From IMG/VR virus record IMGVR_UViG_3300028586_000768, positions 1-26,154 of that record: a stretch of DNA of 26,154 bases. One strand, written 5' to 3'. Below the pieces are notes generated by a model. It was not told the DNA's origin and made no database searches. It saw only the letters and a list, made by a program, of their open reading frames with translations. The position numbers and the translations under genes were made by a program. This document shows positions 9,801 to 15,878 of the stretch, piece after piece (position 1 is the first letter of the stretch; the number at the start of each line of letters is the position of its first letter). The DNA comes from a virus. Its lineage: Duplodnaviria; Caudoviricetes.

Positions 9801-12737
9801 CCGCTCTGCGCCCTCCAGCAGCTTGTACCCCTTGCTGCCGTCGGAGAAAAACCCCTTGGCGGCGCTGGCCATGTCGCCATAACCTTGCACCCGGTTCTTG
9901 ATCTCGCGCTCGCCAAGCTCGGTAATAGTCTTCAGGTACGCAACTTCGTTGAAGTCCTTCTGGCCTCGGGCCTTTTCAGCATTTTTGCGAGCCTCAGTAA
10001 TTTCAGCCTGACGCTTGCTGTAGCTGTCCATGTTCGCCATCAGCTTCGACAGCGCGTCGCCGCCGGCGCCGAACGCCTCACGCAGCGCTTCGCCGAACGT
10101 CTGGGCCTTGGATGGGTCGAGGAACTTGTTGAGCTCCTCAAGCGCTTTCTTGGAGGTGTCGTCTGCCTCGGCTTTCGTGGCGCCAACCTGCTTGCCCGTC
10201 GCCAGCTTTCGCAACTCGGCTGCTTGCTGACGGTAGACCTCTACCAGCTCGTGTTCAGGCTTGACTGCGGCGATCGATGCAGCCGTCTGTTCCTTCTGTG
10301 CCGCCGCAGCAAGCAACCGCTTCGCAGCGAGATCGGCAACTTCAATCTTGCCCAAACCGATCTCCGCATTCGCCAGCACTTGCGCATCGACCTGGTCTTT
10401 GAGCGATTTAAGCTCGGCCTCAGCGCTCTGGATGCCCTTACGGTGATTGTCTTCATTGTCTTGGAAGCGGCGGAACTGCGCGGTTGCAAGGTCGTTTTCG
10501 AGTTGGGCTGCTCGACTAACTTTTTCGGCCTGGATCTCCGCAAGATCCCTTTCTACTTGAGCTACCTCAGTCTGCCCATCCCTAAGCTTCCGTGCTAACG
10601 CTAGCTGACGTTGTGCCTTTTTCTCCTTCTCATCTAGAAGGCCAAGCTCCCGCTCCGCCGCCGCCCGCAGCGCTTCGTCCTCACCAATCTCACCGAGAGC
10701 TTTGCGGGTAGCGATGCGCCCTAATTCTCGCTGCAGCATCAGATCGGCAACGCCATCAAGCTTGTGTAGGCCGGCGATACTGGCTTCGATTGATTCGTTG
10801 TTCGCTGCAGCGCGTGCAGCGGCGATGCGCTCGTCGATTTCCTTCTGGGCCACCCCAGCAGCCAGGCCCTCGCGAGTGATTCTCGTTACAGTATTCTCAA
10901 GTTTGGCGGCTTTGCTCAGATACTGGTCGGCGCCATCGTTCCAGGTCTGCAGAGTCTTTTGCATCTGCTGTCGAACGGCTTCCTGCTGCGAATCCCACTC
11001 CTCCTTATTGATCTTGTAGACAAGCTCGATTTCTTCCCGCTGCAGTGCTTTTTTGTCCGCCTGGTTTAATGCACGTTGGGTTGCCCCGGAGAAGCCAGAG
11101 CGATCCCCAAGAGCCATGGGTGACGGGGCTTTGTCGGCATCAGCGAGCGCAGCGCGAACTTCTTCCAGCCGCTCTTTTGGCGTTTGAGTGCGACCCACTC
11201 CAAGGAATTCGTCCCATGCTGATTTAGCCGCTCCAGTGGCGCCGCGCCATGCACGTTCGACGAGCCCCAAATTCTCACGCATTTTGCCTGTGCGCTCAGT
11301 GAACGCTGCGACGTATGCCTTCTGCGCCATTTCGCCGGCCTCTTCGGCCCTGCCTTGCTCTTCCAATGCCTTGATCTGCTCGAGCGTAGTCCCGGTCAGG
11401 TAGCGGTATGCATCGTTCAGTCGGCGGCTGGCCTCGACTGGAGAGTTGCCCAACTCAGCCAAATCGCTGACAGTCGTTTCGATGCTCTGGCCGACATCCT
11501 TTTCCATCTGAACTGCCAGGAGTCCGAAATCGCGAAGATTTTTAGCGCCGACTTGCCCACTGCCAGCGAGCGCAGCGACTGCTTCTGAAGCCTTCGCTTG
11601 CGTACCGGTGGTCTTGCTGATTTCCCGAGCGAGGTCTGCTAATTGGTTTCGGCTGGTCCCTGCGACATTGCCGGACAGGATGATGGCACGGTTGTACGCG
11701 TCAGCCTCTCTCGACCCTTGGTAGTAGGCGGCAGTAAGTGCAACCGCCGCCGCGGCAGCAAGGGTGTACGGGTTAATGAGTTTCATCAGCTCGTTACCCA
11801 AGGCTTGCGCAGCCGGCCGGATGCCGCCGAATGTATCCCTCAGTTGTCCGCCTTGCTGGATCAACACTGTGAGCGGATCCATCCCGCCCTGCAGAGAGGT
11901 GATCATATCGGTCACTTGCGCTGGGACTTGGCGCAACGCGTTGGCGGTTTCACCTGCCGACATGCCGGTGTCGTTGAAGGCCGACTCCGTCTCGCGAAGA
12001 CGCTGGATCAAGGGCCCCGCCTGCTCGGAAATCCCTAACTGCGCCGCCTGCATCTCGAGCAGCTGCGAGCGGGTCTTGCCGATCGAATTGACTTGATTCG
12101 TCAGATTCGAAATGAAGTTATCGCGGCCGGCTTGCGCCTGCGCAGCTTCACGTTGAGCCTGAGCTTCAGCGCGTGCGGCATCGGCAATCTGCTCATGAGC
12201 GGCGCGCATGTTCTGGAGCTGCAGGATCAGATGCGATGCTTCTTGAGCGGCGCCTGCCTGGGCAGCACGGTAGCGAAGCACTTCGTCCGTCGACTTCCCA
12301 TACAGAGCAATCTGCTCACGCAGGCTCGCTACGAAAGCCTCCTTAGTCGCTTGTGCTTGGGCCAGCTCGCGCTCTGCGTCTGCTTGCGCGCGCGCTGACT
12401 CGGCAGCCTGATTCTGGGCCACTTCGACTTCGCGTAGTCGATTTAGGTAAGGGGCGAGAGAAGCGGGATCGGCGAGCTTTTGACTTCCGATCTGCTCAAA
12501 ATAAGCGGCCGTGCTGCGCCCCCCAGCCTCCATTGCAGCAGTGGTGCGCTGGATTGCACCGATGATGGTTCGCTGGGCAGCGTCGATCGTACGCCCGGAA
12601 CTGGAGGCCCGCTCCCCAGCCTGAGAAACCGCTTGACCCGCTCGCTGTGCCGCATCAACAGCCGGCCTGAGACCTGCCTCGACGCCGGACGCATCTGCAA
12701 CCACACGGATTGTTGCCTCGTTGACAATTTCGCTCAT
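6885..12737 (-). CDS. Tail tape measure protein (1950 aa)
   Basis: Very long Ala-rich helical ORF; lambda-TMP-like motif RQVPAQVTDMITSLQGGMDPLTVLIQQGGQLRDTFGG; likely start MSEIVNE at 12737. Confidence 0.95.
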   Translation of the reverse strand: MSEIVNEATIRVVADASGVEAGLRPAVDAAQRAGQAVSQAGERASSSGRTIDAAQRTIIGAIQRTTAAMEAGGRSTAAYFEQIGSQKLADPASLAPYLNRLREVEVAQNQAAESARAQADAERELAQAQATKEAFVASLREQIALYGKSTDEVLRYRAAQAGAAQEASHLILQLQNMRAAHEQIADAARAEAQAQREAAQAQAGRDNFISNLTNQVNSIGKTRSQLLEMQAAQLGISEQAGPLIQRLRETESAFNDTGMSAGETANALRQVPAQVTDMITSLQGGMDPLTVLIQQGGQLRDTFGGIRPAAQALGNELMKLINPYTLAAAAAVALTAAYYQGSREADAYNRAIILSGNVAGTSRNQLADLAREISKTTGTQAKASEAVAALAGSGQVGAKNLRDFGLLAVQMEKDVGQSIETTVSDLAELGNSPVEASRRLNDAYRYLTGTTLEQIKALEEQGRAEEAGEMAQKAYVAAFTERTGKMRENLGLVERAWRGATGAAKSAWDEFLGVGRTQTPKERLEEVRAALADADKAPSPMALGDRSGFSGATQRALNQADKKALQREEIELVYKINKEEWDSQQEAVRQQMQKTLQTWNDGADQYLSKAAKLENTVTRITREGLAAGVAQKEIDERIAAARAAANNESIEASIAGLHKLDGVADLMLQRELGRIATRKALGEIGEDEALRAAAERELGLLDEKEKKAQRQLALARKLRDGQTEVAQVERDLAEIQAEKVSRAAQLENDLATAQFRRFQDNEDNHRKGIQSAEAELKSLKDQVDAQVLANAEIGLGKIEVADLAAKRLLAAAAQKEQTAASIAAVKPEHELVEVYRQQAAELRKLATGKQVGATKAEADDTSKKALEELNKFLDPSKAQTFGEALREAFGAGGDALSKLMANMDSYSKRQAEITEARKNAEKARGQKDFNEVAYLKTITELGEREIKNRVQGYGDMASAAKGFFSDGSKGYKLLEGAERAFRAMELASQMESLYTHLFVTGAKATGTAAGQAVETGAVVAGEAARNVAKVPGVFMSFMSAMGPWGAAAAAVAVAAVLGGAFSGGGGVSVSESRQKSQGTGTVLGSDAKSESIAKSLEMIENATFQGLSVSTDMLSQLRSIDSNLTNFSTLVVQTTGIKGSLADGLESGSGGFWGKLGNSIFGGKTSVEDTGFSMNPIAFADVFRGWVDSYEYADTKKSGGWFSSDKYRTQIEGLGEEGNRQIALVLTSLYGAVESAGGMLGLAGKDFTDKLNGFVVDIGMVSLKGLSGEEIEKEIQAVFSKVGDQLALYSLDGLKDFQKSGEGYLETLTRIATGYQTVTVVADSMGMSFNAIGVGSIAARQRLIDLAGGLDAFKESADSFMSDFYTDKERADALRARIQPTLDKFGIQTGADDSMDQFRDVVKSLRLETAAGAQDFATLMQIMPAFKQIADIDAALFEDQVELARSRRDLEIQIMELTGDKVSALAATRALELAETDGSLHALLERVYGLQDEAAALELAGSKRQLEAQILGLLGDKAGQLAITRELELAGMDPALRALRQRYFALQDEAAAAEAANSLLTLQAQIYELTGDKAGAAAVLAQQHANALKELDPALRTATEQLWGLQAAAKGVEQVKAIAAALVTGVESAFTALQSVVGREKALLQDVANKHKALADALRGTLDSMSVSGQERQDRSAAQAQIAAALAIAKASGTLPDVDSLKGALSIVGKDSASLFSTQEEYLRDFYATQGDIADLAGLTDKTLSVEEQSIKRLDDILANAQQQVNALKGLDTTMLTLVDVMRDFDRVLGSAQADPVASAGGTLTKLYRELLGRAPDAGGLEFYKARLAEGVTLEQIRNDILQSLEYKQLKGIPGFAGGGFFGGGYRVVGENGPELETTGPARIFNASETSGMLARMARPSEDYAALLAEVRVLRTAFGGLFPVLYQVAKNTGRGANSLEKMDRREEVNA

Positions 12738-12749
12738 CGTCCGCCCATG

Positions 12750-12802
12750 AAAAAAGCCGCCCGGAGGCGGCTCTAAATGCAAAAGCCAGCTGTACGCTGG
12801 CT
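12750..12802 (-). terminator. Two tandem intrinsic terminators after the moron gene
   Basis: AGCCAGC-GTACA-GCTGGCT-TTT (12802-12781) and AGCCGCC-TCCG-GGCGGCT-TTTTT (12772-12750). Confidence 0.75.
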
Positions 12803-12811
12803 CAGTTGTGT

Positions 12812-13174
12812 CTACTCGCCCTTAACGCATAAGGGATCTGGTTTTGCTTTGAATCTTCGCTGAAGCGCATCCTCATAGGCCCCGGCAGCAGCGATGCAGC
12901 TGCTGATTGCTCGCCCATATGCAGCGACTTGCTCTTGCTGCTTTTCGGTAGAAGCGCCTTGAGCCAGGCTCTTCCGTATGAAATCTCGGGTTACTTGAGA
13001 GTAGCCCTCATTCCGGATGTGCCGCATTCTGGCTGAGCAATAAGCCTTGTCAAGCTCGCGCTTGCCCGCCTCTTTCAACATGAGATATTCCGGCTTGTCG
13101 CAAAAGACCTCATCTCCAGCCAGCACTGGAACGCTGGCGCCTCCGAGGGCCATAGCCAAGAACAGGTATCGCAT
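12812..13174 (-). CDS. Moron: secreted/periplasmic helical protein with 4 Cys (120 aa)
   Basis: GGAGG RBS before ATG 13174; signal peptide MRYLFLAMALGGASVPVLA; own downstream terminators; lower GC. Confidence 0.75.
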   Translation of the reverse strand: MRYLFLAMALGGASVPVLAGDEVFCDKPEYLMLKEAGKRELDKAYCSARMRHIRNEGYSQVTRDFIRKSLAQGASTEKQQEQVAAYGRAISSCIAAAGAYEDALQRRFKAKPDPLCVKGE

Positions 13175-13224
13175 CGCATCCTCCAAGTTTTGAGGGTGCA
13201 ATGGTACACCAGCCCGAAAGAGCA

Positions 13225-13257
13225 ACACGAAAAGCCCCGTTGAGGGGCTTCCCGCGT
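13225..13257 (-). terminator. 14-bp hairpin / intrinsic terminator closing the repeat RNA
   Basis: - strand ACGCGGGAAGCCCC-TCAAC-GGGGCTTTTCGTGT; fully paired with three G.U pairs on this strand only. Confidence 0.75.
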
Positions 13258-13262
13258 ACTAC

Positions 13263-13322
13263 CCATGCCGTGCCAAACCGCAGCACACCTTAGCTCACCC
13301 TGCTCAGCCAAACCAAACGATG
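13263..13322 (-). repeat. Pentamer array 1 (GGY-NN)
   Basis: - strand CGT-TT GGT-TT GGC-TG AGC-AG GGT-GA GCT-AA GGT-GT GCT-GC GGT-TT GGC-AC GGC-AT GGG. Confidence 0.9.
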
Positions 13323-13374
13323 CTTACCGCATCAGACAGCACCCTCGTTGAAGATGCTGGCTGCTGTTGTCAGC

Positions 13375-13434
13375 CCATGTCTTACCTCGCCAAACCCGGC
13401 CTTAGCTCACCAGGCCTTACCCAAGCCCGCCGTC
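13375..13434 (-). repeat. Pentamer array 2 (GGY-NN)
   Basis: - strand GGC-GG GCT-TG GGT-AA GGC-CT GGT-GA GCT-AA GGC-CG GGT-TT GGC-GA GGT-AA GAC-AT GGG. Confidence 0.9.
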
Positions 13435-13499
13435 AAGCGAACGCTCCGCAGGGACTCGATCCCCAAGAAAACCACCAAGAGCTGACTTCTTGATGACCC

Positions 13500-13524
13500 A
13501 TGGGGTAGCGCCCAGCTACCCCAT
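13500..13524. other. Perfect 10-bp inverted repeat
   Basis: ATGGGGTAGC-GCCCA-GCTACCCCAT; no U-tract on either side. Confidence 0.7.
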
Positions 13525-13570
13525 CCTGCCGGTCTACGACACGCAGATGCGCTTGCAATCGTGCTAGCAC

Positions 13571-13599
13571 TTGCAATAGTCCCAAATTGGGACTAAGAT
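13571..13599 (+). promoter_or_regulatory. higBA promoter with overlapping operator palindrome
   Basis: TTGCAA-17 nt-TAAGAT; palindrome TAGTCCCAA-A-TTGGGACTA (13577-13595) fills the spacer, as expected for antitoxin autorepression. Confidence 0.8.
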
Positions 13600-13608
13600 G
13601 TGCGAACC

Positions 13609-13908
13609 ATGCGCGTAATCTCACTCAAAACCATCCGCGAATTCTATGAGCAACATGACTATGCAGACTCGAAAGAGCCGCTGTTGACTTGGTACAGGCA
13701 TGCACTCAACGCTACGTGGCCCACACCAGCAGATATCAAGGCTGATTTTGGCACTGCAAGCATCCTGAAAGAAGGTCGCGTGGTCTTTAACATCCACGGC
13801 AACAAGTACCGTTTAGTTATTTGGTTCAACTATCCGTATGGAATTGCTTATGTGAAGTTTGTTGGGACGCATGAGCAATACGACGCTATCGATGCTCAAA
13901 CCATTTAA
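13609..13908 (+). CDS. higB: HigB family mRNA interferase toxin (type II TA)
   Basis: MRVIS...W.TPADIKADFGTASIL...RVVFNIHGNKYRLV...VKFVGTHEQYD signature; toxin-first order. Confidence 0.93.
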   Translation: MRVISLKTIREFYEQHDYADSKEPLLTWYRHALNATWPTPADIKADFGTASILKEGRVVFNIHGNKYRLVIWFNYPYGIAYVKFVGTHEQYDAIDAQTI

Positions 13909-13918
13909 GGACACAATC

Positions 13919-14290
13919 ATGAACATCAAACCAATACGCACTGAAGCGGACTATCAAGAAATGCTTCGAAGGGTTGAGTCGCTCATGACGGCCGAGTTTG
14001 GCACGCCTGAGGGAGATGAACTAGATATTTTAGCGACACTTGTTCAAGCATACGAATCGAAGCATTATCCCCTAGAAGCTGCAGATCCAATCGAAGCTAT
14101 CAAATTTGAGATGGAGCGAACTGGCCTGACGCCGCGAGACCTTGAGCCAATGATTGGCAGACTAAATCGCGTCTATGAAGTCCTTTCCAGAACTCGTCCG
14201 CTCACACTTCCAATGATTTGGAGACTACACAAAGGACTTGGCATCCCGGCCGAGGCTTTGATTCAGCCCCCACGAGAACTCGTTGCCTGA
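13919..14290 (+). CDS. higA: HigA family antitoxin (HTH)
   Basis: IKPIRTEADY...GDELDILATLVQAYE...DPIEAIKFEME...RPLTLPMIWRLHKGLGIPAEALI; TAAGGA RBS. Confidence 0.93.
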   Translation: MNIKPIRTEADYQEMLRRVESLMTAEFGTPEGDELDILATLVQAYESKHYPLEAADPIEAIKFEMERTGLTPRDLEPMIGRLNRVYEVLSRTRPLTLPMIWRLHKGLGIPAEALIQPPRELVA

Positions 14291-14332
14291 TATTTCTCGC
14301 TGTTGCTAAGGGAGCGGCAATACTCCCTTTTC

Positions 14333-14641
14333 CTATTCCTCATCTCGATCGTTCATCGCACCGATAGCGGACGCCTCCATCACTTGGATGGACTCCTCAA
14401 GATCTTCGTACTCGTCCCGGGTGAGCTGCATGCGGTCCATCTTGTGGTGCAGCGGGGTGTAGTCCAGGCCGATCACGCCCATGCCGGCGCCGCGCCACTG
14501 CGTGCGCATATACGCGAAGAGGTCGTATGCCGGAATGTTTTCCGGCCAGATCTCAACGTCTTCATGCGGGTAATCCTCCGGCTTGAAGCCGCCGGCCTCC
14601 ATCTCCGCCAGGTCCTTCTTCGAAAGACCCGGCTCGTACAT
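14333..14641 (-). CDS. Tail assembly chaperone C-terminal part (gpT-like, DUF1799-like), probably made as a frameshift fusion
   Basis: EIWPEN...MRTQWR...IGLDY motif; in the -1 frame relative to the upstream chaperone. Confidence 0.85.
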   Translation of the reverse strand: MYEPGLSKKDLAEMEAGGFKPEDYPHEDVEIWPENIPAYDLFAYMRTQWRGAGMGVIGLDYTPLHHKMDRMQLTRDEYEDLEESIQVMEASAIGAMNDRDEE

Positions 14642-14658
14642 GGCGCCCGCGATCCGTC

Positions 14659-15111
14659 TTAGTTTCCCAAGCGGCCTTCGTTGATCGCAGCGCGGTAGTC
14701 GTCCTTCATCGCTTCGGCCATCGCAGGGAGGGTGTCGACCAGCTCGGCGACCGCATCCTGGTCGAACTCGGCGTCCAGGTTCCAGCCCTTGACGATCTTC
14801 ATGATGAAGTCGACGGCGACGGCCGACTGACGCTTGACGATTTCGGTCTGCGTGATGGTGAATTCGGGGATCGGGTCACCCGTTTCCTTTGCCTTCTCGA
14901 CGGCAGCCTTGAAGCGCTCGATTTCGACGTTCGCCTCGTCCTTCAGGGTCGCCTGCAGCTGATCGGTCAGTTCGGCCAGCTCGGTGCGCGTGCGGTACTT
15001 GTATTCGACTTCCATCGAGCCGGTCGTGCCGTCCAGCATCGCGGCCTTGATGGTCTTCTTGAAGCTCTCCGGGCGCTTGCCCAGGACGATTTTTTTGACG
15101 GTGTTTGCCAT
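14659..15111 (-). CDS. Tail assembly chaperone (gpG-like)
   Basis: Follows the major tail gene; IVKGWNLD..F motif; ends RLGN on a slippery site. Confidence 0.88.
   Translation of the reverse strand: MANTVKKIVLGKRPESFKKTIKAAMLDGTTGSMEVEYKYRTRTELAELTDQLQATLKDEANVEIERFKAAVEKAKETGDPIPEFTITQTEIVKRQSAVAVDFIMKIVKGWNLDAEFDQDAVAELVDTLPAMAEAMKDDYRAAINEGRLGN
14662..14668 (-). other. -1 programmed ribosomal frameshift heptamer G GGA AAC
   Basis: X XXY YYZ pattern immediately before TAA; the -1 frame (CTA AGA CGG ATC GCG GGC GCC ATG) is open into 14641..14333. Confidence 0.85.
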
Positions 15112-15205: not shown

Positions 15206-15838
15206 TTAGTAGCGGACGACCTTGTTCTGCAGCGAGAAGGTCGCTTTCACGGCCATCACGTTGCCCTTGGACAGGGTCGGCGAAGGGTTGAAGCTGCAGT
15301 AGCCGGCGTAGAGCAGGACGTCACCGCCCGGCATGACCGCCTTCAGGCAGGTCAGCTTCACCCCGTCGGAAATCGCCTGCAGGGCGGCGTGGTGCGGCAG
15401 CGATTTGTCGTCAGCGATGGTCAGGGCGACGCTGGTCGCGCTGAAACCGTCTGGCAGCATCACGGGAGTGTCGCTGTCCAGCAGCTGCACCTCGACTGTT
15501 TTGCCCTCGCCGCCGGAAACGTCCGCCGCGGTGACACCCACGACCGGCACCCAGGTGGTGACCTTGCGCACCGAGCCGATGCCGGCGCCGGCCGGGAACA
15601 GGTTGACGTCGGTGGTGTCCAGTCCTTCCAGCACGAAGTTGGTACCGGTCGGCGACTTCACGCGGAAGACGCGGCCGTTTGCCTTGCTCCAGCCGCCGGT
15701 GTATTCGACGAAGTCGCCGGCGGCGAGGGTGTTGGTCGCGGTGCAGACGGTTTCCGCAGCATTGGTTGCGGCCGTGATCGACACGGCGGTTGCGAAGACG
15801 GACGCGATCGCGAACGCCAGGTTGTTTGGCAGTTTCAT
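15206..15838 (-). CDS. Major tail (tube) protein
   Basis: 210 aa between tail terminator and chaperones; ITAATNAAETV, GDFVEYTGGWSKANGRVFRV, SGGEGK motifs typical of tail tube proteins. Confidence 0.9.
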   Translation of the reverse strand: MKLPNNLAFAIASVFATAVSITAATNAAETVCTATNTLAAGDFVEYTGGWSKANGRVFRVKSPTGTNFVLEGLDTTDVNLFPAGAGIGSVRKVTTWVPVVGVTAADVSGGEGKTVEVQLLDSDTPVMLPDGFSATSVALTIADDKSLPHHAALQAISDGVKLTCLKAVMPGGDVLLYAGYCSFNPSPTLSKGNVMAVKATFSLQNKVVRY

Positions 15839-15878
15839 CAAGGGCCTTTCAGGTAAAGAGCCCGGAAGCCGGGCAAAG

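Follow-up and report, generated by a model that had tools for sequence, protein, structure and literature searches.

The window, by which we mean the whole stretch of DNA analysed (26,154 nt; IMG/VR record IMGVR_UViG_3300028586_000768), is a 26-kb contig holding a provirus fragment, about 46% complete, with an HK97-like late operon on the - strand that runs from terminase through the lysis genes. Among ten loci with the nearest bacterial tail proteins, seven are titled Massilia, with identities of at most 87%. After the lysis cassette, the gene at 858-2081 encodes an N-terminal helix-turn-helix and has a strong match to phrog_704, annotated as DNA repair exonuclease. A slot bounded by the DUF1799 gene and the tape measure gene has contents that vary freely among kin; here it carries higB and a likely higA on the + strand, two pentamer arrays on the - strand (array A, 13436-13372; array B, 13319-13260) and a small gene. 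The features of the slot and of the genes matched by guides are the following:

12812 to 13228, - strand: small gene of unassigned family, 3' of the guides, with a homolog after the guides in the relatives L163/L167 (37% identity)
13225 to 13259, - strand: terminal hairpin, terminator-like (z -4.4), resembling the final tail in the cassettes of L163/L164
13260 to 13269, - strand: two fixed final units (tail start), with the same ending in array A, SUSP1 and vipr-linked arrays
13270 to 13319, - strand: guide B, made up of ten pentamers, with variable dinucleotides that match the tail-gene site
13314 to 13381, - strand: three-hairpin tail between guides A and B, 93% identical over 72 nt to that of the vipr-positive L164
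13382 to 13436, - strand: guide A, eleven units
13500 to 13524, - strand: short hairpin with weak likeness to the left-border hairpin of complete cassettes
13600 to 13908, + strand: HigB toxin gene (PF09907); relatives have an Arc repressor, an antirepressor, vipr and vap in the same slot
13859 to 14290, + strand: likely HigA antitoxin gene, named by position (phrog_1373, transcriptional regulator)
14759 to 14790, - strand: mismatched counterpart (16/22) of the site likely read by guide A, in the phage's own tail assembly chaperone gene
15206 to 15841, - strand: major tail (tube) protein gene (PF08813, phrog_584)
15222 to 15250, + strand: perfect self site of guide B, 14-42 nt ahead of the tail-gene stop codon
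16365 to 16618, + strand: part of the neck (HK97 gp10-like) gene with three matches to L167/L168 guides (24/28, 28/34 and 16/18)

The higB gene and the likely higA share 77-78% identity with a gene pair in the relative L081. A palindrome at 13568-13598 overlaps a plausible higBA promoter and is likely an operator; its counterpart at this position in L081 is 90% identical over 31 nt. The left-border-type hairpin is found about 65 nt ahead of guide A, likewise in the orphan array of L249 described below, with higBA lying outside it. Several relatives, whether they have VIPR or not, contain one to four short G-rich/C-rich hairpins with variable loops 3' of the DUF1799 gene (L249:6239-6330, L034:11364-11425, L025:6373-6500, L168:8299-8325, and 13500-13524 in the window). 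Peptide and DNA searches for an antirepressor remnant 5' of guide A gave nothing convincing.

The initial annotation had read the pentamers as a guide RNA with GGY as scaffold and NN as target reader, and had likened it to a phage system named VIPR. Such a system is described in a preprint (bioRxiv 10.64898/2026.04.26.720920): its guides consist of GGY/NN units and have a structured tail, target reading skips one base at a time, usually the wobble base, and silencing is transcriptional. Judged by its sequence, the array is a member of the VIPR vrRNA family in orphan form, and the guide reading is borne out as VIPR-type by the one-base skip rule and by the match of the tail to vipr-linked arrays. 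A tail model (R1) built only from vipr-linked arrays, the window being left out, finds the tail of the window with 77 bits (E 6e-19), and two vipr loci, L163 and L164, have tails nearly identical to it. Changes on both sides occur in 12 of 22 tail pairs over 19 sequences, a level reached in none of 500 shuffles, in an alignment that contains the window and with a structure drawn from it. The GGY fraction is 0.74, close to the median for vipr-positive loci (0.75), and the 10 target-reading units of guide B and 11 of guide A, each followed by two fixed ones, are within the 9-16 range of VIPR vrRNAs. Neither scaffold nor tails show decay. We were not able to find a promoter-like site 5' of guide A on the - strand or a similar array in GenBank phages, and an Rfam search for a hammerhead ribozyme between the guides (12700-14700, E 5) returned only a weak unrelated match. 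A block of 12 bases is identical in the two guides and falls on the same units in each (13400-13411 and 13288-13299), which may reflect guide copying or recombination.

For array B, the initial annotation had claimed that ten variable dinucleotides match, in order and skipping the wobble base, the phage's own major tail gene at 15250-15221. The pentamers are as it wrote them and the match was reproduced: guide B scores 20/20 with a one-base skip at 15222-15250, which corrects the footprint to 29 nt, and at skips of 0, 2 or 3 bases it reaches at most 13/20 in the window. Each skipped base is a third codon position, and the site encodes VKATFSLQNK in the tail-tube gene. The second-best site at the one-base skip scores 13/20, and sites with up to three mismatches number one in the window and none in 100 shuffles of it. 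The shuffle check on chance that had been proposed also came out in favor of the match, since none of 2000 order-shuffled versions of guide B exceeded 18/20 at the best of four skip rules. Other parts of the original reading also needed adjustment. Ten of the listed units do read the target, while the eleventh and twelfth are the fixed start of the tail, as judged from the same ending in both window arrays, in SUSP1 and in other vipr-linked arrays. The first matched unit has no GG and three of the nine others are not GGY, departures that are usual in vipr-linked arrays. The self site is about 1.9 kb from guide B, the guides being downstream of this target in the same direction of transcription, and the guide B RNA would pair with the coding strand of the tail gene.

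The tail-gene target is thus the phage's own, as had been claimed, but it is not private to this phage: the exact site was found in 17 other viral contigs, always in the orthologous tail gene. For this reason guide B is probably aimed at kin, and a self-match at a site common to many related phages is no proof that the phage aims at itself. Since a guide stores only two bases per codon, an origin from this phage and an origin from kin are indistinguishable. Among 34 loci with a tail protein at least 74% identical, guide B scores 20/20 in 11, and within two mismatches its site is present in 13 of 110 genomes of the likely host genus (6 exact), against 2 for a reversed control. In vipr-positive phages with a cassette in the same slot the site scores 10/20 (L167), 10/20 (L175) and 18/20 (L168); L168 has the same tail sequence as the window. 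In comparison with the guide-less L018, identity peaks at 96-97% over 15325-15026, across the target, and is about 65% in the neck genes. This peak is a hint of how guide B and its site may have been united in one genome, though it could also be plain conservation. With armed relatives matching the neck gene of the window, and guide B matching the tail gene of an armed relative, the picture is one of reciprocal conflict among HK97-like phages of Massilia-type hosts. Guides of two more distant vipr-positive loci, L194 and L196, score 29/34 and 30/34 against the tape measure gene of the window at about 11820-11870, a motif on which many guides converge.

Judging from where its matches fall, guide A likely targets relatives at the GWNLD motif of their tail assembly chaperone genes. 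This motif is its best match in 39 of 49 kin loci, with a best single score of 17/22. The mean over kin loci is 15.8/22; shuffles average 14.2, and none of 150 equals the mean of guide A. No exact 22-base target was found in viral contigs, none within two mismatches in the 110 genus genomes, and none within three mismatches in 50 related records. An 18-base match in L069 skips codon position 2 and was taken as chance. A score of 18/24 at the start codon of the portal gene of the window was also set aside, since it requires a fixed tail unit and drops to 10/22 and 15/22 in the portals of two kin.

No vipr was found on the 26-kb contig: the best tblastn match with the SUSP1 Vipr has an E of 0.94, and a profile of 51 Vipr sequences, which does match in G488 and G489, gives no match at E 10. 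The SUSP1 Vipr was taken from the annotated record, and the residues that the structure preprint names agree with it. Likewise, tblastn with SUSP1 Vap1 and with the Vap of L164 revealed no vap in the window. Solo vrRNAs are defined by the lack of a Vipr on their contig or less than 20 kb away; no Vipr was found on this contig, which covers about 13 kb on each side of the guides and about 46% of the phage. In the likely hosts, vipr is present in 0 of the 110 genus genomes (phrog_4652 and profile A1) and in 1 of 401 family genomes. The genus genomes contain no further orphan arrays by DNA, by pattern or by an RNA model, one that does match in G117. Three extra pattern matches in the family genomes were ordinary coding DNA without arrays.

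Complete cassettes, on the other hand, were seen in relatives after the vipr loci had been fetched with the 51-sequence profile. In L167, L168 and L175 a cassette follows the DUF1799 gene and fills the same slot; the first two have the order Arc-like repressor, antirepressor, vipr, vap and guides, and the L175 record stops inside vipr. Guides are missing from the slot in the close relatives L018 and L019. A tail-pattern search found 55 viral loci, with vipr adjoining the arrays in 54.

The exception, L285, is one of three orphans in all. At L285:9960-10170, about twelve vipr codons are fused to the end of the first guide, a clean internal deletion of vipr and vap, and the remaining guide scores 29/30 on the tape measure motif of G530 and 18/30 on itself over the whole record. 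A metagenome scan returned three loci. The first, L248, a 54-kb record, does not differ from the window anywhere in the 2-kb slot or in any of the ten proteins compared, and L250 is the same phage as L168. The third, L249, is a second orphan, its array of three guides lying in the same tail slot (L249:5850-6200). Its guide 2 matches its own tape measure gene at 19/20 (22/24 extended), wobble-aligned, its guide 3 matches the tape measure start of the vipr-positive L167 at 28/32, and one of its guides matches G518 at 22/24.

Among vipr-positive loci, none of 226 distinct guides scores at least 0.9 on its own locus (maximum 0.85), and 45 do so in other loci. These guides, of 9-18 units, were parsed automatically from 176 vipr-positive loci, some being missed by the parser, and most self tests were made on pieces of 4-20 kb that were not deduplicated; the loci hold 123 distinct Vipr proteins, or 60 clusters at 90% and 33 at 80%, and the set leaves out fifteen SUSP1-like loci and four duplicates. 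A similar result came from 20 near-whole vipr-positive records of up to 59.9 kb each, with guides parsed in 18: none of 38 guides scores at least 0.9 on its own record, two reach 0.85, and 15 score at least 0.9 on another record. The orphans score 1.0 (window), 0.92-0.95 (L249) and 0.60 (L285) on themselves. Fisher's test for self-matching in 2 of 3 orphans against 0 of 33 to 0 of 123 gives p values of 0.005 to 0.0004; the window was chosen for its self-match, and a fair orphan count of 1 of 2 gives about 0.02-0.06 by hand. The distribution of scores suggests that vipr-positive relatives avoid self-matches and that a self-match above 85% is found only where vipr is missing. With three orphans, the link between self-match and missing vipr is suggestive and not established. 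The last guide of the vipr-positive L165 (L165:11320-11400) is irregular at its 3' end and scores 22/28 on the start of the L165 tape measure gene, no better site being present in the loci compared.

We suggest that the two guides are an orphan VIPR pair left from a cassette that silenced the tail genes of kin, and that the perfect self-match persists solely because the phage lost vipr, a reading to which we give a probability of about 0.6. Armed phages would use the cassette to silence tail and neck genes of relatives at codon-conserved sites that differ in the owner. Guide B would originally have been aimed at a tail-gene site common among kin, and cassette and site would have been united in one genome by cassette transfer or by tail-gene exchange. 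With Vipr present, its binding near the end of the tail gene would be expected to block the late operon there, and with it the chaperone, tape measure and lysis genes further downstream, given the repression shown for this system (bioRxiv 10.64898/2026.04.26.720920). Such a conflict may have selected for the deletion of vipr and vap, or a prior deletion may have lifted selection against the match, and both orders fit. At present the guides could work only if a co-infecting phage supplied Vipr, and their preserved sequence indicates that they may still be loadable by it; the undecayed scaffold and tails are equally consistent with recent loss and with ongoing use. Against the reading as leftovers, the contig is about 46% complete, the absence of vipr covers this contig only, and there are only three orphans.

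It is also conceivable, though rather unlikely, that the guides are maintained as a trap, where those of the lysogen load the Vipr of a superinfecting relative, which then binds the relative's own tail gene. The late genes of the prophage being silent, the prophage would lose nothing, and the guide would be free to use a site conserved in the phage and in its kin. The 18/20 of guide B on the tail gene of the vipr-positive L168 is above any self-match in vipr-positive loci, this relative shares the tail sequence of the window and has guides that match its neck gene, and the other orphans also match vipr-positive relatives (L249 with L167 and G518) or another record (L285 with G530). Tails and terminator are intact, and solo guides of satellites redirect Vipr experimentally (bioRxiv 10.64898/2026.10.15.759431). 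However, the lack of a promoter-like site 5' of guide A leaves lysogenic expression unsupported, Vipr is rare in the likely hosts (genus and family genomes above), matches to vipr-positive records are expected because such records dominate the comparison set, and two other vipr-positive relatives score only 10/20. In a tentative extension, to which we give a similarly low probability, temperate phages that lose vipr would keep guides against sites shared with kin as a poison pill, the orphan guide of the lysogen turning the effector of a superinfecting VIPR-armed relative on that relative's tail operon at no cost to the silent prophage; if true, VIPR autoimmunity drives effector loss and is reused as defence. 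Deliberate self-regulation, in which a vipr encoded by the host or by the half of the phage beyond this contig would use guide B to hold the late operon down, possibly as feedback, seems improbable. The perfect wobble-aligned self-match 1.9 kb from the guide, the incompleteness of the contig, the position of the guides downstream of the target in the same direction, which would allow feedback, and the repression of transcription by VIPR on either strand (bioRxiv 10.64898/2026.04.26.720920) would suit it, but vipr adjoins the arrays in 54 of the 55 loci found by tail, vipr-positive phages avoid self-matches, no genus genome has vipr, and the slot appears deleted rather than redesigned.

Nor do we think it probable that the pair is an inert passenger, a two-guide fragment recombined from a vipr-positive donor into a lineage that never had vipr, its RNA being unused. 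Slots without guides in L018 and L019, the variable slot contents among kin and the weak likeness of the left-border hairpin to those of complete cassettes would agree with this; nevertheless, the presence of that hairpin about 65 nt before guide A, as in L249, fits an internal deletion better, and L285 is such a deletion caught. As for a chance match of a simple repeat, the boundaries and the skip rule were picked after the data had been seen, but the results of the 2000 shuffles over four skip rules, the homology of the tail to vipr-linked arrays and the independent publication of the one-base skip rule (bioRxiv 10.64898/2026.04.26.720920) make it hardly credible.

Within the portions of the sources available, the closest known system to the leftover guide pair is type II VIPR, from SUSP1 and a Pseudomonas fulva prophage (bioRxiv 10.64898/2026.04.26.720920 and 10.64898/2026.04.26.720927). 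Both have GGY/NN guides of 9-16 units, a structured 3' tail, the wobble skip and prophage targets, and the Vipr of the nearest complete cassette has 43% identity with that of SUSP1. The window array is probably of type II, an assignment made without the published tree. It differs in having no vipr or vap on its contig, in a tail that folds as three hairpins instead of the pseudoknot of SUSP1, and in its self-match of 100%, compared with no self-hit of at least 80% in the P. fulva, type III and type V guide sets (bioRxiv 10.64898/2026.04.26.720920). It resembles the solo vrRNAs of F5 satellites and of VIPR-null SUSP1-like phages, which are guides kept after the loss of vipr and vap that would need Vipr in trans (bioRxiv 10.64898/2026.10.15.759431). 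The solo guides described there belong to phages of Enterobacteriaceae and target REP elements of the host, vipr, satellites or other vrRNAs, those aimed at vrRNAs score lower on themselves, and self-matching was tested only against the guide (vrRNA) locus and not the whole genome. Unlike them, guide B of the window is in an HK97-like prophage and is aimed at a virion gene, with a perfect score on self. The mini-CRISPR arrays of SPV1 and SPV2, which have no cas, are similarly effector-less guides against close relatives, proposed to act in superinfection exclusion; they differ in having contiguous CRISPR spacers and using host Cas proteins, with orthologous self sites mutated against self-targeting (PMC6858448).

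VIPR and orphan (solo) guides are therefore known already, and what is new is the perfect match to an essential virion gene of the carrier, together with a second case and none among armed phages. Self-matching orphan guides were not found in the portions of the VIPR preprint texts available, and the supplementary tables may hold cases. The locus represents a natural perfect self-match to an essential virion gene, set beside preprints that describe guides aimed at rivals and report no self-hits. If the link between self-match and loss of vipr holds, sequence divergence is the only mark of self and non-self in VIPR, autoimmunity shapes the retention of the effector, and the level of mismatch that is tolerated (about 85% vs at least 90%) can be read from nature.

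In four of the loci, the gene directly 5' of vipr is an antirepressor whose domain varies by phage (ORF6N, AntA or Bro-N), with an Arc-like repressor opposite (L164:1466-4030, L163:1120-3988, L168:8324-11033 and L285:7900-10000). With this gene order, a phage entering a lysogen might first induce the prophages there and then shut off the tail genes of those prophages.
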